Numbered from the stretch's first letter, positions 3,297 to 15,848 are shown. The stretch: 64,000 nucleotides of DNA from Candidatus Bathyarchaeia archaeon (GCA_038870975.1 JAVZJD010000002.1:131037-195036), one strand, 5' to 3'. Notes: a model not told the origin generated them from the sequence alone. A program made the numbers and translations.

Positions 3297-3325
3297 TTTA
3301 ACCTCTAGTAGTACTAGAGGTTAAA
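3297..3325. promoter_or_regulatory. Perfect 14+1+14 palindrome (TTAACCTCTAGTA-G-TACTAGAGGTTAA) abutting vapB start codon; probable antitoxin operator, AT-rich TATA-like box just upstream (~3279-3296)
   Basis: Read directly from sequence; AbrB/SpoVT-type antitoxins classically autoregulate via inverted repeats overlapping their promoter. Confidence 0.5.
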
Positions 3326-3552
3326 TGAAGGAGATATTAGTGACAAGGAAGGGTCAAGTGACTATCCCAGTAGAATACAGGAGGAAGTATAGGATTAGGG
3401 AGGGGGTTAAGGTGTTGATAGAAGATATTGGTAATGGCCTCTTGCTTAAACCAGTTCCTAGCTTAGAGGAGCAGGCTGGGATTGACGCTGGGAAGTATGA
3501 TGTTAAAGAGCTGAAGAAATTGCTTGACCGGATGCGTGAAGAGTGGCGTTGA
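3325..3552 (+). CDS. vapB: AbrB/SpoVT-family antitoxin (VapB-like)
   Basis: 75 aa, N-terminal swapped-hairpin motif (KGQVTIPVEYRRKYRIREG); overlaps downstream PIN gene by 10 nt. Confidence 0.7.
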   Translation: MKEILVTRKGQVTIPVEYRRKYRIREGVKVLIEDIGNGLLLKPVPSLEEQAGIDAGKYDVKELKKLLDRMREEWR

Positions 3553-3962
3553 GAGCGGTCTTGGATACAAGGTTCTACTTCTCATATTACAATCCAGAGA
3601 ATGGAGAAGTTGCTAGTTGGACCAGAAGTATTGTTCAGGGTATATTGAAGGGAGAACTTAAGGTAGCTTCATCTGTGATTACGATTGCTGAGCTTTATGG
3701 TACTATGGGAAGGTTGGTTGGAATGGATGCTGTGAAGTTGAGGATCGCTTCTAGTAAAGCTTCGAATATACTATTCATCCCTATAACCGAGGATATAGCC
3801 CATATTGCCGGGGAAATCACCTTAAGAACTCCGAAAATTCCATTAGCTGACGCTATAATTGCTGCAACAGCCTTAATTCACGCCCATGGAGTTGTAGTTA
3901 CAGATGATGAACACTTTAAACTCGTAAAAGGCATCGAGACAGTATGGTTAAAGAGTATTTAA
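3543..3962 (+). CDS. vapC: PIN-domain ribonuclease toxin (VapC)
   Basis: 139 aa; N-terminal LDT..., central acidic residues and C-terminal ...VVTDDEHF; typical PIN spacing; operonic with AbrB-type antitoxin. Confidence 0.75.
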   Translation: MALRAVLDTRFYFSYYNPENGEVASWTRSIVQGILKGELKVASSVITIAELYGTMGRLVGMDAVKLRIASSKASNILFIPITEDIAHIAGEITLRTPKIPLADAIIAATALIHAHGVVVTDDEHFKLVKGIETVWLKSI

Positions 3963-5093: not shown

Positions 5094-5294
5094 TTGGCTA
5101 AGTGTCCTGGTTGTGGCTTTGAAGTAGAGTCTTCGAAAGAGTGGACTTATGGTCCTAAGGGTCGTAAAGGTCCAACGTTTCAAGTGCAGGCCTTTAAATG
5201 CCCCAGCTGCGGCTTACAATTCCGAAACTACCTTCAAGAAGGCCGGGTTAAATTCACCCTGGCTTTAAGAGAGGGCAACTTTAGAAAAGTATAG
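5094..5294 (+). CDS. Small zinc-ribbon protein (two CxxC pairs)
   Basis: 66 aa with CPGCG...CPSCG; TTG start per ORF track. Confidence 0.45.
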   Translation: MAKCPGCGFEVESSKEWTYGPKGRKGPTFQVQAFKCPSCGLQFRNYLQEGRVKFTLALREGNFRKV

Positions 5295-5347: not shown

Positions 5348-5662
5348 TTGGAAATGTGTACGCAAGAATACTACTTAACTACCCCTAACTGCTACTTTTC
5401 ATTTGAAATTGATCGATCTGTTTTTAAGCGGCTACGATCAATTCTATTTTTGAGGTTTATGTCCCGACGTCGTTATTCTAAGCCTGCCCGTGAGATCGTA
5501 CTGGATTTTCTGAGGAGCGCCAGTAGACCTGTTGGATTAGGCGAGATCGTCAAGAGCACGGGCATAGCGTACAATACTGTTAGAGGTCGTCTCTACGAGC
5601 TTAAGAAGAAGGGGCTTGTGAAGAGAACATCTGATGGATGGGTTGAAGTGAATGCGCCATGA
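5348..5662 (+). CDS. Winged-helix DNA-binding protein; possible controller (C-protein-like) for the downstream methyltransferase
   Basis: C-terminal ...GLGEIVKSTGIAYNTVRGRLYELKKKGLVKR... wHTH pattern; stop overlaps MTase start by 4 nt. Confidence 0.5.
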   Translation: MEMCTQEYYLTTPNCYFSFEIDRSVFKRLRSILFLRFMSRRRYSKPAREIVLDFLRSASRPVGLGEIVKSTGIAYNTVRGRLYELKKKGLVKRTSDGWVEVNAP

Positions 5663-6660
5663 GTTTTGCAATCACCAACGAGAGGAAGAGTAAGTACATC
5701 CCGATGAGACTCGTCACGCTGGAGGAGTATTTAGAGTACGTTAAAAGCCATAGCGTCGTACGCATAGAGGATGAAGAAATAGCCATAGGAAGGCCGTATA
5801 GGATTGAGAAGTATCAGCCCGATGAATTCACCCTTGAAAAGACGACTGTATGGTCTTTCCCAGATAGGGGCGACTGGGCTACGCATAGAGGCGACTACAG
5901 GGGTAATTGGGCTCCTCAGATAGCTAGAAACCTCATCCTACGCTATAGTAAGCCTGGCGAACTAGTCTTAGACCAGATGTGTGGAGGAGGAACAACACTG
6001 GTGGAGTGTAAGCTTCTAAGCCGTAATGCCATAGGCGTAGATATAAACTATGAAGCCGTCATACTAAGCCTCGACAGGCTGAACTTCACGTACAGACCCC
6101 TAGACCAGGACTATAGAGAGCCCGACGTAAAGGTATACCATGGGGATGCTAGAAACCTAAATCTGATCGAAGACGAATCTGTAGACTTGATAGCTACCCA
6201 TCCACCATATGCAAACATAATCCCATACAGTAAGAGCAGGAGGGTGGAGGGCGACCTATCACAGGTCTACAGCCTAGAGGAGTACCTGGAGGGTATGCGT
6301 GAAATAGCCATGGAAAGCTTCAGAGTTTTAAAGCCTGGAAGATTCTGCGCCATACTGATAGGCGACACCAGGAAGCATAGACACTACGTTCCAATAGCCT
6401 TCAGAGTCATGCAGCAGTTTCTAGACGTAGGATTCATACTGAGGGAGGACATAATCAAAGTCCAATGGCATACTAAGACGACTGGTAGGAAGTGGGCTGG
6501 CCTAGCTAAGACGGCTGAAGAATGCTGGGTTGAAAAGCCGCAGGACAAACGCTACTGGACGGACTTCTACCTGATCAGCCACGAACACCTATTCGTATTT
6601 AGAAAGCCGAGTAGCGGCGAAGAAAACGAAGAGTATAGGGATAGTATGAAGTGGTGGTAA
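5659..6660 (+). CDS. DNA (N6-adenine or N4-cytosine) methyltransferase with unusual motif order
   Basis: SAM-binding motif VLDQMCGGGTTLVECKLLSRNAIGVDINYEAV (resembles the FxGxGTT...GiEi..Y motif I of beta-class N6/N4 MTases) located upstream of catalytic ...DLIATHPPYANI (PPY motif IV), i.e. permuted relative to PF01555-type enzymes. Confidence 0.75.
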   Translation: MSFAITNERKSKYIPMRLVTLEEYLEYVKSHSVVRIEDEEIAIGRPYRIEKYQPDEFTLEKTTVWSFPDRGDWATHRGDYRGNWAPQIARNLILRYSKPGELVLDQMCGGGTTLVECKLLSRNAIGVDINYEAVILSLDRLNFTYRPLDQDYREPDVKVYHGDARNLNLIEDESVDLIATHPPYANIIPYSKSRRVEGDLSQVYSLEEYLEGMREIAMESFRVLKPGRFCAILIGDTRKHRHYVPIAFRVMQQFLDVGFILREDIIKVQWHTKTTGRKWAGLAKTAEECWVEKPQDKRYWTDFYLISHEHLFVFRKPSSGEENEEYRDSMKWW

Positions 6661-7304
6661 ATATCGTGAGAATGCGTAGGGAGCCCAGCTGGCTTAAGTA
6701 TAAAGTTCTCGTGGATAAGGCCATAGTTGAAGAGAACTACATCGATGGAACCGAGGCTGTTGTCGACCCCCTACCGCATCCAGACGACGTAAGGACTATT
6801 CTAGAACAGCATTTCAAAGTTCACAGCAATAGGAGCTTCAGAGTGATACTGGTCGAAGACTATGCGGATTACAAAGTGTTCATTCAGATACCTGATGGAA
6901 AGTCTGAGTACGACTTCTACGTTTGGCGTGCCATATTTGAACGTGGGAAACCTGTAGATGTGAAGGTTCCGACGCACGACGACTTAGCCGTCTTCTTCAT
7001 AGAGCTTAAATCCAAACACGAAGACTTAGAGGAGTACCTGATAAATGCCGTTGTAAAACTGATCCACCACAACTACAGATGGGGAGTCCCTAGGATAGTC
7101 TCAAAGTACTTTAACAACCTCAACGATGAGCTGAAGGGTGAAGTTGGAAAATTCCTATCGACGCTTAAATGGATAGCGCTCCAAGAAGATATAAACTACC
7201 CGCCTAAAGAGAGGAAGATAGGCTCCAAGTATACTCTAGCGGTCTACGCTCTACTAGAGGCAGGATTCACAATGAGCGAGATAAGAAGAGTCATCAGATT
7301 CTAA
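6651..7304 (+). CDS. Hypothetical protein; candidate PD-(D/E)xK-like nuclease; paralogous C-terminal domain shared with next ORF
   Basis: Overlaps MTase stop by 10 nt; ...PHPDD...(20 aa)...ILVEDYADYKVF... loosely fits PD...(D/E)xK; C-terminal LKWIALQEDINYPPKERKIGSKYTLAVYALLEAG. Confidence 0.55.
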   Translation: MVVNIVRMRREPSWLKYKVLVDKAIVEENYIDGTEAVVDPLPHPDDVRTILEQHFKVHSNRSFRVILVEDYADYKVFIQIPDGKSEYDFYVWRAIFERGKPVDVKVPTHDDLAVFFIELKSKHEDLEEYLINAVVKLIHHNYRWGVPRIVSKYFNNLNDELKGEVGKFLSTLKWIALQEDINYPPKERKIGSKYTLAVYALLEAGFTMSEIRRVIRF

Positions 7305-7359
7305 ACCCGTCAGATAGAGCTGAAGCAACATATGAACAGTTGAAGGAGGATGTAAACAT

Positions 7360-7914
7360 ATGGTTAGAAGCGTTGCAATCGGACAGATGGTAGGAGGTAA
7401 AAAAGTTCTAGCTGCTGTAAATTTATCGAACGGTTGGCAAGTGGTTAAGACAGAAGACAAAAAATCCCCACGAGATTTCAAAGTTAAGGTAATAAACCCT
7501 CAGCATCCAAAAGGACTGACGGTTAAACATGCTCACTTCGCCATCGACTTTTACGGAAAACTCTGTCAAGATGAGGAAAAGGCTATTAAAGTGCTCGAAG
7601 CAATCGGCGAAGTATGGCGTGGAAGAAGCGTAAAAGATGTAGTAGAGGAATATGAGCCGCAAATCCAGGAGCTATCTGGCTATCCCTTAGAATACATACT
7701 ACATGCTCTAAATTGGATATTAGAACAAGAGGATATCAATTTCAAAGGGCGCTCTGAAGAAAAGCAGAAAGAGATTGATGAAAAAATAAAGAAGTTAGGC
7801 ATTGAGCCTCCGAAGGATAGAAAGGGAAGCCAGCTTGAAATAGCCCTCCTCTGCGATATAGCCAGCGGTACACATCCTGTTGAAGCTTTCTATAGGGCGG
7901 GATTAAAAATCTAA
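7360..7914 (+). CDS. Hypothetical protein, paralog of 6651-7304 in C-terminal domain
   Basis: C-terminal LNWILEQEDINFKGRSEEK...GSQLEIALLCDIASG aligns with preceding ORF's LKWIALQEDINYPPKERK...GSKYTLAVYALLEAG. Confidence 0.55.
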   Translation: MVRSVAIGQMVGGKKVLAAVNLSNGWQVVKTEDKKSPRDFKVKVINPQHPKGLTVKHAHFAIDFYGKLCQDEEKAIKVLEAIGEVWRGRSVKDVVEEYEPQIQELSGYPLEYILHALNWILEQEDINFKGRSEEKQKEIDEKIKKLGIEPPKDRKGSQLEIALLCDIASGTHPVEAFYRAGLKI

Positions 7915-8051
7915 CTGCAATTTCAGCGTCAGCATGTGCTACACGTCTAGATACTGCGAGTAGCCCACCATGCACTTAGAGTTAGCAGATTCTTTAGACG
8001 GCCAAACACAACATAGTGGATGTAGAAAATGAGGAAAGGTATATATGACTT

Positions 8052-10097
8052 TTGCGAGGAATGAAATATCTGGTTAATATGGGTAAAGAAGTTACTGAAG
8101 AAAAGATCACAGTTAAAACATTGGTTTGGGTGGCTGTTTTAAGCGTTGCCGTGGCGTTTTTCTGGAATTTTTTCGAAGCTCTTTTACCGCCTTTGGCTCG
8201 GTGTACTCAGAGGGTTAATGCTTTACTTACACCGGTAGACTTTGTAGGCGGTCCGTTCGTCGCCTTCTTGATTGTTATGGTTCTTCAGTATTTCCAGCCT
8301 CTGCGGAAATATCTTAGTAGAACGAACCTAGCGTATCTCAGCATCGCTATGATAACTGTGTCGTTCTATACGCATTTTGCAACAATAGAGACTAGGAATA
8401 CGTGTTTCCTCTTGGCTAGACCTTTGATTCCGGAATCTGTTGGTAGATACGTACCATGGTTTGTATCGCTTCCATCAGAAGTTGCTGAACTGCTCATCAG
8501 AGGTACGGGTAATCTAGGGGTTCTACCATGGGATGTTTTGCTTCCGGCGATTCTATGGAGGTTCCTACTAATCGCTCTTTTTGCTGGTGTTGGTATAAGC
8601 GTAGTCAACATCTTCCGCCGTAGTTGGATAGATGTCGAAAAACTCCCATTCCCATACGTCGACGTAGTCCAGACTTGTCTAATAAACGTCGAAGGCATGA
8701 TGAAGAAAGAATGGCCATCTAAGACGCGTTTCCTTATTGGGATGCTTGTCGGGTTTTTACTCGGCATACCTTTAAGTGGTGCAACACTTTTCCCATGGTT
8801 TCCAGACCTCTACATGTGGCGTACGGATACATGCCCTCCAGGGTCTCACTGGGTAACTCCCGCAGATGTGCCGTGGCACTTAGGTATTGGTAAGCATCCA
8901 CTCATGTATCCGATAATGCTTCTAACGCCTATCCACGCTCTATTTAGCATACTGTTCTACACACTTGTCATGGAAATAGCGCTTTTCATAGCCTACTATG
9001 GCTTCGGCTATTACACGGGTATGCTTGGATCAGGCTTCTGTGGAAGAAACTGGTGTACAGGTCCAACCGTTGCACCACCGCTTTACCTTTTCACGGTATG
9101 CTCTGGTGCTGCACTCGGCTTCTTCATAATAACTGTACTATTAGAGCGACGCTATATCGTGGAAACTTTGAGGCTTGCCTTTAGAAGAACTGATGTTAAG
9201 GTCGAAGCTGGTGAACCCATGAGCTACAGATATTCTTGGATAATGCTTATGGCGTTCTCTGTATTGGTTATAGTGTTCTTTATGTATACTGGGTTGAGCC
9301 CATGGCTTTCCTTTGTAGTATTGGTTTCAACCATCATAATATGGTTCACTTTGACGCCTATATGGGGTCGAACGTTTATCACATTACAACCGTGCTACTG
9401 GCTTTCCCCAGCTATGATAAGGCTCATGGCATATCCAACATGGTACTTACCAGAGATAACATCGACCGATTTAATACTTGTACCTCTTTTAAGTGCGGAA
9501 TGGATCGGGCATACTGCAGGTGGAGGCTATGAAGGCGGAGGAGGCTTCGGCACGCCGTTCTTCGTATCTGCCTCGACTTATAGGATTGCCAGCCTCAACA
9601 GTATACATCCGAGGAACGCGTTGAAAATCATGGTTGTTTCAATGCTTATAGCATCGTTCATCACGTGCTTCAACCAAGTGGCTATTCCAGGCCTATTCGG
9701 ACATGCAACATTAGGCTACAATCTGTGGGACTATTCACAGGAGCCTGAATGGCATTTCTGGACAATACCGTACAATGGGCCGATGGTCGAGGGATGGCTT
9801 CATCTAAGCGTCGGCTTCATCCTAATGGTTGTAGGAAGATACTTATACACGAGGTTCCTATGGATGCCAGATCCATTGCTAGCGTTAGTTGCATGGAGCT
9901 GGGAAATATCCATTGACGGATTTTGGCTTGCATGTCTAGTAGCATGGATAGTGAAGTCCGCAATACTAAGGATAGGCGGAAGCAAACTCTACGAAGAATG
10001 GGTTGTACCATTCGTTGGAGGCTTCACACTAGGATATGCTTTAGAAGTCCTAATAACAGCATCAACAAGCTTCATACTATTCCCACGTATACTTTAA
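8052..10097 (+). CDS. Large polytopic membrane protein (681 aa, many predicted TM helices, Gly-rich loop GGGYEGGGGFG), unknown function
   Basis: Long hydrophobic segments throughout; no recognisable transporter signature; last gene of the wHTH-MTase-paralog block. Confidence 0.65.
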   Translation: MRGMKYLVNMGKEVTEEKITVKTLVWVAVLSVAVAFFWNFFEALLPPLARCTQRVNALLTPVDFVGGPFVAFLIVMVLQYFQPLRKYLSRTNLAYLSIAMITVSFYTHFATIETRNTCFLLARPLIPESVGRYVPWFVSLPSEVAELLIRGTGNLGVLPWDVLLPAILWRFLLIALFAGVGISVVNIFRRSWIDVEKLPFPYVDVVQTCLINVEGMMKKEWPSKTRFLIGMLVGFLLGIPLSGATLFPWFPDLYMWRTDTCPPGSHWVTPADVPWHLGIGKHPLMYPIMLLTPIHALFSILFYTLVMEIALFIAYYGFGYYTGMLGSGFCGRNWCTGPTVAPPLYLFTVCSGAALGFFIITVLLERRYIVETLRLAFRRTDVKVEAGEPMSYRYSWIMLMAFSVLVIVFFMYTGLSPWLSFVVLVSTIIIWFTLTPIWGRTFITLQPCYWLSPAMIRLMAYPTWYLPEITSTDLILVPLLSAEWIGHTAGGGYEGGGGFGTPFFVSASTYRIASLNSIHPRNALKIMVVSMLIASFITCFNQVAIPGLFGHATLGYNLWDYSQEPEWHFWTIPYNGPMVEGWLHLSVGFILMVVGRYLYTRFLWMPDPLLALVAWSWEISIDGFWLACLVAWIVKSAILRIGGSKLYEEWVVPFVGGFTLGYALEVLITASTSFILFPRIL

Positions 10098-10186
10098 GCA
10101 TCCCTTGTTTTTTATGGAAGATTTTTGATGTGTTTAAATGTGACCTCTATTTTCTTTTTCCTTTTTATTAGTTAAGGAGGAGGAAC

Positions 10187-10459
10187 TTAGTAGGGAACGA
10201 AGAATCCAAGATTTAACTCTGCCCCTCCGAAAAGCCCTATTGTAACGAGCCCTGCTATAAATCCTGTTGCTATTGGTACGTCAACATTCTTATAGAGTTT
10301 GGCTCCTCCTATTTTGAGAGCCAAGTGCTTTGACACCCATGCTACGAAGAACATTATCCATATACCTGTCAATATATCCCACCCCTCCGTTGCTATAAAC
10401 AGGCTGAGAGGTTCTAATGGGAACCATAGGAACTTAGCATGTAAGTAACTTAACATCAA
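10187..10459 (-). pseudogene. Opposite-strand 90-aa fragment paralogous to the C-terminus of the 681-aa membrane protein
   Basis: ...WVSKHLALKIGGAKLYKNVDVPIATGFIAGLVTIGLFGG... vs ...WIVKSAILRIGGSKLYEEWVVPFVGGFTLGYALEVLITAS... at end of 8052-10097. Confidence 0.4.
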
Positions 10460-10656
10460 AGCTGCTATGAAAACAGTTGCGGCTGAATTATCTAAGGCTC
10501 TGGTGCAGGGTCTAGTCTAGCATCTTCCATATTTGCCCATTCATTTATATAAGATGCATTTATCCATGAAGCTGTTCCAAGCAACCTAGAGTGCATAAAC
10601 GCATAAGATAAACATTATTTACTATAAAAGGGCTATGGTTGAGACAGCTGAAATAG

Positions 10657-10845
10657 TTACTCTATGCTCTCAGAGCTCATACCTAAATTGAGCTTCACGG
10701 AAAGAGGGCATAACTGCCTTACGGATTTAAATTTAGCGTAGAAGCACTCTTCACTGTAGTAGTGCTCGACTGGATTGCAAGTCCAGCTCAGCGTGAAGTC
10801 TACGTCTACGCTCACCACTTCCATCAGTAAAGCCTTCACGTACAC
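10657..10845 (-). CDS. Small Cys-containing protein (62 aa), paralog of fragment at 4849-4918
   Basis: ...DFTLSWTCNPVEHYYSEECFYAKFK...; DNA-level inverted-repeat relationship with 4849-4918. Confidence 0.4.
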   Translation of the reverse strand: MYVKALLMEVVSVDVDFTLSWTCNPVEHYYSEECFYAKFKSVRQLCPLSVKLNLGMSSESIE

Positions 10846-11549
10846 CAGTATTGGGCTGAATCGCTATCAAAATGGGCGACACCCAACATACATTGGAAAA
10901 CCTTAATCTTTTAAAATTTGAACTCTTCCAAATTTGCTTTATTCCGAGTGTTTTGAATATACGCTCTATGGGGGAGCCCTATTTAGCAATATCCATGTTT
11001 GAAAGGGGTCCTATTAGGTAGTGTATGAGTCATGGGAAGTCTACTCCGTATAATGAGTAGGCTAAGACTTGACTTAAACCTTCAAAGTACTGAAACTTCT
11101 TCACAACCATTATCTTAAGCTTTGTGATTTCTTCCATCACAGAAACCACATACAGATCACCTGTCCAGCGGATTCTTGGGTAAAAGTTTGGCGATGTTTT
11201 AAAATTTTGTTAAAGCTACTATTATGTTGCAACCTTTATATTCATTACTATGTCTTTAAAGAATTTTTCACAGTCTTCAATATATGGTTCTCATCTTAGT
11301 GCATTAAGCTACAGTTGACGCATCTCTATTCGCTCTTAATTATCTTGTAGTTCCCTCCTAGGGGAAACGGCAGGAGCTTATATGTTTTAACGTTTCCATC
11401 CTTTTAGCGTAGCTTGAGTATGACTACATTGCTGTATTTGGCCATAAGTGTGCGAAGACCTCTTCAAGCTTCTCGGTCTCATCTCTACCGGAAACGGTCA
11501 CACGAACCATTACACTACTATTTAAGGCTTCTATCTAAAGCTGGACGTT

Positions 11550-11965
11550 TTACAGTTCTCGCGGGTCGATTCTTTTTATCCCCGGTATGGTGTCGAACAC
11601 TGTGTCTGTTGAGATTATTGTGTGGTCTGGGACTTGGTTGAGGGCTGTGGCAGCGTAGTATGCGTCGAATATCGAGCTTATTCCATACTGTCTTACTAGT
11701 GCTAGCGCTAGAAGGTCTATTTCACATGTGGTTTCTAGGAAGACTAGGTTCTCTATCGCGGTTAAAGCGGCGAATCTAGCGATCAGTTCATCGACAGAGA
11801 CTCCCTCTTCTCTTGAAACGTAGTATATTTCGTGGAGGCTTTCTCTTGAAGCGTAAACGGTGCCAAGCCTCCCCTCGCGGTCTGCAATATAACTTTATCT
11901 GCGGTCGGCTTTAGCCAATCCTCTCTTTTGATGTAAGCGTATAGAATGTCTGTTTCAACAATCAA
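11550..11965 (-). pseudogene. vapC: VapC (PIN-domain) toxin gene disrupted by a +1/-1 frameshift (~11880)
   Basis: Frame 1 MIVETDILYAYIKREDWLKPTADKVILQTARG... stops after 60 aa; shifted frame continues ...LGTVYASRESLHEIYYVSREEGVSVDELIARF...ISTDTVFDTIPG... to stop at 11550, completing a ~135-aa PIN fold. Confidence 0.6.
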
Positions 11966-12213
11966 AGTTGCTTTCTCCTCTTTGCTCGTTTAACAGCATC
12001 TTCTCTAGCGCCTCTCTCAGCTAAAGCTTTCAATTCTCTCCTATCTTTTTCCGTGTCCAACCAGTCCCCCGCCTTCTCATGAGGTGTTTTCGGAAGTGGA
12101 ACTGCGATGAAAAAAGAACCTGCTGGTATAATAATGGCTCTGGTTTTCCTGACCCCCAGCTCCTTAGGGATAGTCATCCTCCCCCTTTCATCGACTTTGA
12201 CTACAACCATCAA
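11962..12213 (-). CDS. vapB: AbrB/SpoVT-family antitoxin (VapB-like) with basic C-terminal tail
   Basis: MMVVVKVDERGRMTIPKELGV... swapped-hairpin N-terminus; overlaps downstream PIN (pseudo)gene by 4 nt. Confidence 0.65.
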   Translation of the reverse strand: MMVVVKVDERGRMTIPKELGVRKTRAIIIPAGSFFIAVPLPKTPHEKAGDWLDTEKDRRELKALAERGAREDAVKRAKRRKQL

Positions 12214-12350: not shown

Positions 12351-12551
12351 TTGAACAACAACCTAATGGAAAGAAAACAGGGGACGATAAGAGACAGGGA
12401 AAAAGTAATGAAGGGGCTAAAAACCACTGAAACACCAATCATTCCAATGAAAAACATTTACTACGACTTCATAAGACCTCATATAGCTTTAAACGGCAAA
12501 ACACCAGCAGAAAAGGCAGGGGTGAAGGATTGGGTCAAAACAAATGGTTAA
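12351..12551 (+). mobile_element. C-terminal fragment of a DDE transposase (IS remnant)
   Basis: ...NNNLMERKQGTIRDREKVMKGLKT...YYDFIRPHIALNGKTPAEKAG matches the conserved C-terminal tail of DDE/rve-type transposases (NNxxE...GF...YNxxRPHxxL); no N-terminal catalytic region upstream in any frame. Confidence 0.5.
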
Positions 12552-15163: not shown

Positions 15164-15421
15164 ATGTCTGAGGTTGAAGTTAGAGTTAGTAAGAAGAATA
15201 CGCTCTATATTCCCAAGTCTATAGCTGAGGCTTTAAGCATTCGTGAGGGAGCGCGTCTTAAGATGAGAGTTGAAGGAAATAAACTTGTAGCTGAAGTTAT
15301 TCCTGATCCATTTTGGCTAGCGCTTAAAGGGTCAAAATTCAGCTCAACTACGTTTGAAGAGTTTGAGGAAGAATCAGAAAAAATGCAGGAGGAGATTTTT
15401 GGTGGAGAAGATACTTCTTGA
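15164..15421 (+). CDS. vapB: AbrB/SpoVT-family antitoxin (VapB-like)
   Basis: MSEVEVRVSKKNTLYIPKSIAEALSIREGARL... swapped-hairpin pattern, acidic C-terminus. Confidence 0.65.
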   Translation: MSEVEVRVSKKNTLYIPKSIAEALSIREGARLKMRVEGNKLVAEVIPDPFWLALKGSKFSSTTFEEFEEESEKMQEEIFGGEDTS

Positions 15422-15848
15422 TTCAACGTATCTTCTTCCAATTGTCGGTATAGCCGTTAAAGATGTTGAAGAGATTTTAAAAGTCCTAGAGAGACTTTAT
15501 AGGGCTGACGCCATTGAACTATACTATACGCATTTCAATATTCTCGAGATAATGGGTAAGTTGAGCAGGACATGGTATGAAGTTGAAACAGTAAAAATGG
15601 GGCTTCGATCTATAATGGAGAATTTTCGGCAAGCGAGTCCAACGTATCAATCGTATGTAAAAGCTTTACAGCTTAAATCCATAGGGTTTAGAGACCTGAT
15701 AGACCTTTTACTATACACAACATCGGTGGATAATGGTCTTCAATTGCTTACAAGAGATAGGAAGCTATGGGAATTCGTAAAGAAAACTGGGGAAGGCGAA
15801 TCAAAGGCAATAATACTTGAGGAAGAGTTCTTGAAAGCACATCGATAA
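15399..15848 (+). CDS. vapC: PIN-domain toxin (VapC-like); likely TTG/GTG start at 15399/15402 rather than the track's ATG at 15354
   Basis: ...VEKILLDSTYLLPIVGI... N-terminal PIN strand and ...LLTRDRKLWEF... C-terminal motif; overlaps vapB stop. Confidence 0.6.
   Translation: MVEKILLDSTYLLPIVGIAVKDVEEILKVLERLYRADAIELYYTHFNILEIMGKLSRTWYEVETVKMGLRSIMENFRQASPTYQSYVKALQLKSIGFRDLIDLLLYTTSVDNGLQLLTRDRKLWEFVKKTGEGESKAIILEEEFLKAHR

Follow-up and report, generated by a model that had tools for sequence, protein, structure and literature searches.

What is encoded by a run of co-directional genes in a 64,000-nucleotide stretch of DNA from Candidatus Bathyarchaeia archaeon (GCA_038870975.1 JAVZJD010000002.1:131037-195036; this whole stretch is referred to as the window), and which of these genes belong to one system? 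A first-pass annotation of this DNA had proposed five open reading frames (ORFs) as a restriction/defence module, and all five were found where it had placed them. They encode a winged helix-turn-helix (wHTH) protein, a circularly permuted DNA methyltransferase (MTase), two proteins of 217 and 184 amino acids (aa), designated P3 and P4, and a 681-aa membrane protein. The proposal holds with respect to the permuted MTase, the wHTH protein with its controller (C)-protein-like character and the two paralogous unknown proteins, but not as a five-component system that includes the membrane protein. It is quite probable that window positions 5401-7914 represent a mobile Type II restriction-modification (R-M) cassette, in which P3 and P4 are the candidate restriction enzymes, and the cassette displays the genomic hallmarks of such systems.

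The MTase belongs to PF01555 (E = 1.3e-25, Pfam) and matches the family profile in two swapped stretches: residues 54-134 correspond to profile positions 133-216, and from beyond residue 157 the protein matches the profile's N-terminal half. The structure in PDB entry 2zie aligns over both halves, also in swapped order, and motif X and motif I (VLDQMCGGGTT) precede motif IV (HPPY). The earlier observation that the S-adenosylmethionine (SAM)-binding and catalytic motifs stand in a non-standard order is thereby confirmed, as DQMCGGGTT, GVDIN and HPPY are all present and the profile halves are exchanged. Both H181-P-P-Y184 and GGGTT are invariant among seven MTase orthologues. The enzyme is a stand-alone MTase of the kind found in Type II systems, with SAM motif I and an HPPY variant of the (D/N/S)PPY-type motif IV, and the PADLOC Type II model MTase_II (PDLC03376) covers it from end to end (3.9e-75). 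The catalytic domain and its motifs are those of beta-class PF01555 MTases (M.PvuII, M.RsrI, M.MboIIA and TTHA0409/2zie), from which it differs in having the motif X-I half ahead of the motif IV-VIII half and HPPY as motif IV. Another difference is found in some of its relatives: the orthologues at L005:4513-5712 and L007:4517-5719 (minus strand) are ~400 aa long, divergently oriented to P4-type genes, and carry a C-terminal extension (…PYGFVYIPKNAL…GEKLHL…) that by eye resembles an AbrB/SpoVT-type swapped hairpin and is possibly a fused regulator in place of the separate wHTH protein. A version of 527 aa occurs at L011.

The context of the MTase was compared over two sets of loci, 65 GTDB species loci with a relative of P4 and 80 metagenome loci with a relative of P3 (~145 in total). 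In neighbourhoods inspected individually (Acidilobaceae, Archaeoglobus, Thermoproteota, Bathyarchaeia and metagenome contigs), where the MTase orthologues are 44-72% identical (44-98% over all loci), the MTase gene is accompanied by one P3- or P4-type gene and the two sit among unrelated housekeeping genes. A P4-type gene adjoins the MTase gene in 57 of the 65 GTDB species loci, the other eight being contig-edge cases or remnants, and a P3-type gene does so in 69 of the 80 metagenome loci, so that an orthologous MTase gene lies beside a P3- or P4-type gene in 126/145 loci. Among the 11 P3 loci without an adjacent MTase gene, 10 lack a flank on one side, and the eleventh (L130) resembles L128, whose MTase gene lies farther upstream than the L130 contig reaches. 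P0302 and P0269, two distant members of the same superfamily, are likewise encoded beside a permuted MTase. The recurring unit is thus a pair, the MTase gene with either a P3-type or a P4-type gene, to which the wHTH gene is sometimes added. This is the anatomy of a Type II R-M system, unlike that of a new multi-component defence system; the five-gene set, previously taken for one operon-like block, is not conserved among related loci.

The same-species Bathyarchaeia metagenome-assembled genome (MAG) contig L013 (GCA_038881855.1) has a gene order identical to that of the window, and P4 is 99% identical to a protein of this MAG. By blastn, seven related cassettes can be aligned to the window only over ~5401-7308, which comprises the promoter and the genes for the wHTH protein, the permuted MTase and P3. 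P4, whose gene has its own AGGAGG Shine-Dalgarno sequence at 7344-7349, lies outside and is an add-on just beyond the conserved cassette.

As in Type II systems, the partner is a separate gene that is persistently linked to that of the MTase, in variable order, and mobile. All four possible arrangements of MTase (M) and partner (R) genes occur, and the P3 loci include 31 with M->R, 31 with R->M, six divergent pairs and one convergent pair. The M+R pair is found at 50-60% identity in many phyla of archaea and bacteria and in chromosomal surroundings unrelated to one another, which, together with the free gene order, argues for horizontal mobility. Hosts of P4-type genes are spread over many archaeal phyla and bacteria, including Thermodesulfovibrio, WOR-3, Chloroflexota, Patescibacteria and Omnitrophota. 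No match for P3, P4 or the MTase was obtained among PLSDB plasmids, INPHARED phages or IMG/VR, and these collections accordingly show no sign that plasmids or viruses carry the cassette.

The P3 and P4 subfamilies are ~20% identical to each other, and the MTases linked to them intermix in a neighbour-joining tree. For example, the MTases of L101, which has a P3 partner, and L025, which has a P4 partner, are 86% identical, and it follows from such similar MTases that two widely diverged subfamilies serve one MTase specificity. Both subfamilies have also come to lie beside one MTase twice independently, in the window and in L110/L111, in different arrangements. Such partner swapping is expected if the sole interaction runs through the DNA site, and is hard to square with an obligate protein partner. 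This bears on an alternative in which P3 and P4 would be non-catalytic partners of the MTase (DNA-binding, target-recognition, methyl-reader or regulatory subunits), so that the cassette would be an epigenetic module and restriction, where it occurs, would be left to an occasional DpnII-family gene. Such a role would agree with the lack of a nuclease fold or motif in P3/P4, with the DpnII-family genes inserted in ~10% of cassettes and with the recurrence of modified-base-binding EVE-domain genes as neighbours. However, an obligate partner should co-evolve with its enzyme, yet highly similar MTases take either subfamily; gene order and orientation are unconstrained; and the PADLOC Type II model spans the MTase as a stand-alone enzyme.

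The pattern of decay speaks against non-catalytic partners as well. When lesions within the conserved cores (stop codons, frameshifts and truncations) were scored, the MTase gene was intact and the P3/P4-type gene damaged at seven loci, the reverse (MTase gene damaged and partner apparently intact) was seen at one, and both genes were damaged at five. Intact P3/P4 genes without a MTase gene were absent from the well-flanked loci among the ~145. This is the Type II behaviour in which R is lost while M is kept (7 vs 1), and R is not maintained without M. As P3/P4 genes decay while the MTase gene stays intact, the MTase appears to work without them, and the absence of intact P3/P4 genes without a MTase gene indicates toxicity rather than help. 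A non-catalytic role of P3/P4 is accordingly considered unlikely.

The clearest case of such decay is the sister strain L079, which is 97.8% identical to the window at the nucleotide level. Its wHTH gene and 333-aa MTase gene are intact, P4 is deleted, and its P3 gene is interrupted by nonsense codons at W92, Y153 and W174, three positions that are invariant or nearly so. L079 joins window position 7372 directly to 11760 across an imperfect direct repeat, GGTTA(G)AAGCG (L079 3467-3477), and so lacks a 4.39-kb segment (7373-11759) that contains P4, the membrane protein gene and a DUF6784 gene remnant. Because L079 retains the P4 Shine-Dalgarno sequence and the first 13 nucleotides (nt) of the gene, the segment was lost from this strain; the event is a deletion by microhomology. 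In several bacterial MAGs (L061, L062, L065, L070, L072 and L074; WOR-3, Thermodesulfatator and Thermodesulfovibrio), the genes for the MTase and the P4-type protein are both truncated or frameshifted, and these doubly decayed cassettes show that bacteria lose the family as well as gain it.

With regard to the candidate restriction enzymes themselves, P3 and P4 are homologous. A direct BLASTP comparison gives a weak match over a C-terminal motif (E = 2e-4), and a profile-profile comparison with 30 homologues of each gives a probability of 94.8% (E = 4.8e-8) over 120 columns. The common part is therefore a core of ~120 residues; the paralogy previously suggested for the two proteins holds, but the common region is not the C-terminal domain alone. 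The junction between the MTase and P3 genes, described as an overlap at 6660/6651, is indeed tight, but the overlap itself is uncertain because the P3 start probably lies at 6666 or 6672: in L013 the gene is called with 212 aa, and homologues begin with MPR or MPK. An exhaustive profile search yields 138 cluster representatives at 50% identity, all of them small proteins. The family, which also comprises hundreds of 90%-identity clusters, is entirely unannotated, and cluster look-ups of the distant members return unnamed metagenomic proteins throughout. Nothing above chance was detected for P3 and P4 in Pfam, NCBIfam, PADLOC or PHROGs, nor for 75 scanned superfamily members in Pfam, PADLOC and NCBIfam, and sequence-profile searches of the PDB with the superfamily found no relative. 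A literature search turned up surveys of archaeal R-M systems and the PabI precedent, and no description of the superfamily. An archaeal survey (PMC10609329) notes the difficulty of detecting Type IIR genes through similarity.

In the joint alignment, K84, D88, F89, V91, H109, L172, W174, E179, D180, N182, G191 and S192 (P3 numbering) are invariant, and the polar residues common to both subfamilies would fit an active site. It was suggested earlier that the first of the two proteins carries a loose PD...(D/E)xK pattern (PHPDD...ILVEDYADYK). This pattern does not hold up, since D45 and D46 are not conserved among P3 homologues, and the P4 family has nothing equivalent to E69, D70 and K75 of P3. 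Neither the alpha-beta-beta-beta-alpha-beta core nor the D...(D/E)xK triad of PD-(D/E)xK enzymes is present in P3/P4, and no HNH, GIY-YIG, phospholipase-D or half-pipe restriction fold or motif is recognisable in them; the fold comparison proposed in the first-pass annotation (PD-(D/E)xK, HNH, GIY-YIG) thus gave no match when it was run. The predicted fold, a small beta-meander plus a helical bundle, is confidently modelled and has no assignable known fold. The two proteins nevertheless stay, as had been supposed, the best nuclease candidates of the cassette, with no match to a named family or system.

A further-reaching reading, the chance of which falls slightly short of even, is that P3/P4 constitute a new structural and catalytic class of restriction enzymes outside the PD-(D/E)xK, HNH, GIY-YIG, phospholipase-D and half-pipe folds. 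This class would be spread horizontally among thermophilic archaea and bacteria and perhaps use an unconventional active site (K, D, H and E-D-x-N) or non-hydrolytic chemistry, and both subfamilies as well as DpnII-type enzymes would be exchangeable on one permuted, probably GATC-specific MTase. Another alternative is that P3/P4 are restriction enzymes but not phosphodiesterases and would damage unmethylated sites through other chemistry, such as base excision and apurinic/apyrimidinic lyase activity as in R.PabI, carried by a novel helical fold. Several DNA glycosylase families are helical, and the predicted fold is unlike all five known restriction-nuclease folds. Mobility reasoning of this kind led to the discovery of R.PabI in hyperthermophilic archaea (PMC10273834, PMC1874622). 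This alternative is regarded as quite improbable.

The first gene of the cassette encodes a winged helix (HTH_IclR, 2.4e-6; further matches of Csa3/MarR type), which in PADLOC-DB 2.0 matches just the wHTH parts of Csa3/CARF models. The start codon previously chosen, TTG at 5348, is most likely to be replaced by the ATG at 5459, giving 67 aa: this ATG is preceded by a GAGG Shine-Dalgarno sequence (5452-5455), the L013 gene call is also 67 aa, and orthologues align from this methionine. The conserved promoter and operator fall inside the longer ORF annotated earlier. The stop codon of the wHTH gene overlaps the MTase start in the sequence ATGA (5659-5662), and homologues of the wHTH protein adjoin the cassette in ~17 loci, including the P4-type cassettes L005, L017 and L057.

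Upstream of the ATG, the palindrome GATCGATC (5411-5418) stands immediately 5′ of a TATA-like box, TTTTTAAG (5421-5428), and these elements are enclosed by a perfect 9-nt inverted repeat, AATTGATCG/CGATCAATT, at 5407-5415 and 5435-5443. Seven orthologous upstream regions retain GA(T/C)CGATC and the TATA-like box although their flanks have diverged, and exact GATCGATC occurs in 9 of 13 wHTH-bearing cassettes, including the P4-type L057. The number of GATC sites per 150 nt averages 2.38 in cassettes with a wHTH gene and 0.31 in those without, against a background of 0.32. A general feature of MTase promoters was considered as the cause of this GATC cluster and ruled out, as the cluster occurs only alongside the wHTH gene. 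The presence of the small wHTH protein, which is not of Xre type, correlates with the palindrome at the promoter, and we infer that the GATC palindrome is an autoregulatory operator overlapping the promoter and a functional equivalent of the C-box. According to a preprint (bioRxiv 10.1101/2023.06.07.544091), prokaryotic winged helices can read adenine methylation in GATC context, and by analogy methylation-coupled control of the cassette through the putative operator is conceivable.

Evidence on the target of the MTase comes from the endonuclease genes that share some cassettes and from site avoidance. Several cassettes contain an embedded full-length endonuclease of the DpnII family (PF04556, E = 1e-71 to 1e-76); at L023 the order is M->DpnII->P4 with gaps of 4 nt and 16 nt, and at L085/L086 it is wHTH-M-P3-DpnII. 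In the DpnII-bearing cassettes L023, L085/L086, L105, L128 and L139, no other MTase gene is found in the sequenced flanks, which suggests that the permuted MTase has GATC specificity. GATC is also the most depleted four-nucleotide palindrome in the window (observed/expected ratio 0.49) and in the pooled P4 loci (0.55), as measured in cassette-bearing sequences only. Reading the recognition site from palindrome avoidance was also attempted and gave an ambiguous answer, with GATC, GGCC, GTAC and CTAG all depleted. Taken together, GATC has about an even chance of being the MTase target.

DpnII/LlaDCHI/MboI systems pair a Dam-like MTase with a PF01555 MTase. At L003, L009, L106, L123 and L159, the cassette abuts a complete pair of a D12 Dam-like MTase and DpnII, often with an EVE-domain gene. 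Stand-alone genes for this PUA-like, modified-base-binding domain recur at L003:4489-4929, L105, L106, L123, L128, L130, L132 and L159:8166-8597, in most cases with the DpnII/Dam pair on one side and the permuted MTase gene on the other, and this recurrent neighbourhood of EVE, DpnII/Dam and MTase genes suggests a conserved GATC-methylation island.

In the proposed mechanism, transcription of the wHTH gene would start at a promoter with the GATC palindromic operator flanking its TATA-like box, and the gene product would probably regulate its own operon as controller proteins do. The coupled translation predicted for the wHTH and MTase genes would yield the permuted beta-type MTase, which would mark host DNA, probably at GATC. 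P3 would be the cognate restriction component and P4 a second, homologous one protected by the same MTase. K84, D88, H109, E179, D180, N182 and G191-S192 (P3 numbering; the first six correspond to K35, D39, H57, E124, D125 and N127 of P4) may form a DNA-cleaving or DNA-damaging active site that would act on unmethylated sites. What was observed directly is the gene anatomy, the family and permutation of the MTase, the P3-P4 homology, the linkage counts, the swapping of partners, the pattern of decay and the lack of the membrane gene in related cassettes; the attack of P3 and P4 on DNA, the GATC specificity, the function of the operator and the identity of the catalytic residues are deductions.

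Several points weigh against this mechanism. Neither sequence nor fold comparison detects a nuclease, a glycosylase or any further kind of catalytic domain in P3/P4, and the case for an enzymatic role is consequently built wholly on genomic behaviour. All members of the superfamily come from MAGs or metagenomes. In cassettes that include a DpnII-family enzyme, that enzyme might do the actual restricting, and P3/P4 might have some other function. As for the GATC part, GGCC is the most consistently depleted palindrome (75/80 loci) and ranks first in P3 loci, in a comparison confined to cassette-bearing loci, and a distant orphan Dam could protect GATC instead. In addition, two departures from the classical C-protein systems count on the same side: the regulator of the cassette is a 67-aa winged helix (IclR/MarR/Csa3-like) and not an Xre-type HTH, and the operon has the order C-M-R in place of the classical C-R.

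In other respects the cassette resembles the C-protein Type II systems (PvuII, AhdI and Esp1396I). Both combine a small DNA-binding regulator, a stand-alone MTase and a small partner gene in a compact mobile cassette, with a conserved palindromic operator (a putative one in the cassette) before the regulator gene, a patchy horizontal distribution, and decay of R while M is kept. Unlike those systems, the cassette has restriction candidates without a recognisable nuclease domain, and two homologous candidates for one MTase. It is also related to the DpnII/LlaDCHI/MboI GATC systems (Dam-like alpha-class MTase, DpnA-type PF01555 MTase and PF04556 endonuclease), as a PF01555 MTase adjoins DpnII-family endonucleases, often with a D12 Dam-like MTase, and GATC is depleted in the window. 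On the other hand, the MTase of the cassette is permuted, its motif IV is HPPY where those systems have DPPY, it is constantly partnered by P3/P4, with DpnII-family enzymes in just ~10% of loci, and GATC is a deduced target. The nearest precedent in spirit is the R.PabI family of half-pipe restriction glycosylases of hyperthermophilic archaea, likewise a ~200-aa component in thermophile genomes, recognised through the mobility of a gene linked to M (PMC1874622, PMC10273834) and having a fold outside the classical nuclease folds; P3/P4 show no similarity to R.PabI.

The type of system is therefore ordinary, and what is unusual is a large modelled family of restriction candidates without an assignable fold that is interchangeable with DpnII-type enzymes on one methylase. 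If P3/P4 are restriction enzymes, a large unannotated family would join the few architectures known for sequence-specific restriction and would be a source of thermostable enzymes, and fold-based surveys would still be missing restriction genes in uncultured thermophiles. It also appears that restriction genes of P3, P4 and DpnII type can accumulate on, or replace each other beside, one MTase. One possible annotation for the family is "putative Type II restriction component", and a defence label on the DUF6785 membrane gene is to be avoided. The features of the region are listed in Table 1.

Table 1. Features of the candidate R-M cassette and the adjoining region, in window coordinates.
Feature	Coordinates	Strand	Evidence
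Putative promoter/operator of the cassette	5407..5443	+	Inverted repeat, conserved palindrome and TATA-like box
67-aa winged-helix regulator, putative C-protein-like role	5459..5662	+	HTH_IclR, Shine-Dalgarno, L013 gene call
333-aa circularly permuted PF01555 DNA MTase (N4-C/N6-A)	5659..6660	+	Pfam, PADLOC, PDB 2zie
P3, 217 aa, candidate restriction enzyme, subfamily A	6651..7304 (probable start 6666 or 6672)	+	
P4, 184 aa, second candidate restriction enzyme, subfamily B	7360..7914	+	
DUF6785+DUF6784 polytopic membrane protein, outside the module	8052..10097 (probable start 8079)	+	
4.39-kb segment in the window and L013, missing from L079	7373..11759	no strand	blastn, junction alignment

The remaining gene of the proposed module encodes the 681-aa membrane protein, for which no transporter signature had been recognised. 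It does carry family signatures, namely DUF6785 (9.8e-21, 74.3 bits, cut-off 25) and DUF6784 (6.6e-9, 36.3 bits, cut-off 26.4) in Pfam. A TATA-like box lies at ~8041-8047, ~32 nt upstream of the likely ATG at 8079, and the L013 gene call is 672 aa. A reading in which all five genes form one multi-component defence system, with the membrane protein as effector or sensor, is in keeping with the shared direction and close spacing of the genes, seen both in the window and in L013. However, the membrane gene has a TATA-like box of its own, the nucleotide homology of the seven related cassettes ends at ~7308, and no homologue of the membrane protein accompanies the MTase, P3 or P4 genes in the ~145 related loci except in L013 and in L082, where the orthologue is on the upstream, opposite side of the cassette. 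The gene is also missing from L079 together with the rest of 7373-11759. A PADLOC check of the five proteins, as the first-pass annotation had advised, identified the MTase through MTase_II but no catalogued multi-gene system, and P3, P4 and the membrane protein matched nothing. The five-gene reading is contradicted by these observations and has scarcely any probability left; the membrane gene is a resident neighbour and not a component of the R-M cassette.

Convergent with the membrane gene, a 90-aa ORF on the minus strand (10187-10459) matches only the C-terminal DUF6784 (8.1e-14), and the region beyond it to ~11400 is rich in stop codons. This ORF looks like a remnant of a second, decayed copy of the membrane-protein gene. 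At L082, two genes of the DUF6785/DUF6784 type stand in tandem.

Some other genes were recorded around the cassettes. Directly downstream of the M-DpnII-P4 operon of L023 (Ca. Alkanophaga), an Apea-like HEPN protein is encoded at L023:3663-4370 on the minus strand (2.5e-36), which is consistent with a defence-island setting. Directly upstream of the cassette in the window, a 66-aa ORF with a double CxxC zinc ribbon (5094-5294) gives weak zinc-ribbon profile matches only; it is kept in L013 and L079 and lies outside the part common to the other cassettes, which starts at ~5401. The region is flanked by AbrB/SpoVT-type antitoxin and PIN-type toxin pairs at 3325-3962, 11783-12213 (minus strand) and 15164-15848, with MazE_antitoxin and PIN Pfam matches recorded for their L013 equivalents, and the cassette is thus set in a stretch rich in toxin-antitoxin modules. 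In addition, a 66-aa ORF at 12351-12551 resembles by eye the C-terminal end of a DDE-type transposase (…YDFIRPHIALNGKTPAEKAG…) and is possibly an insertion sequence fragment beside the variable segment.

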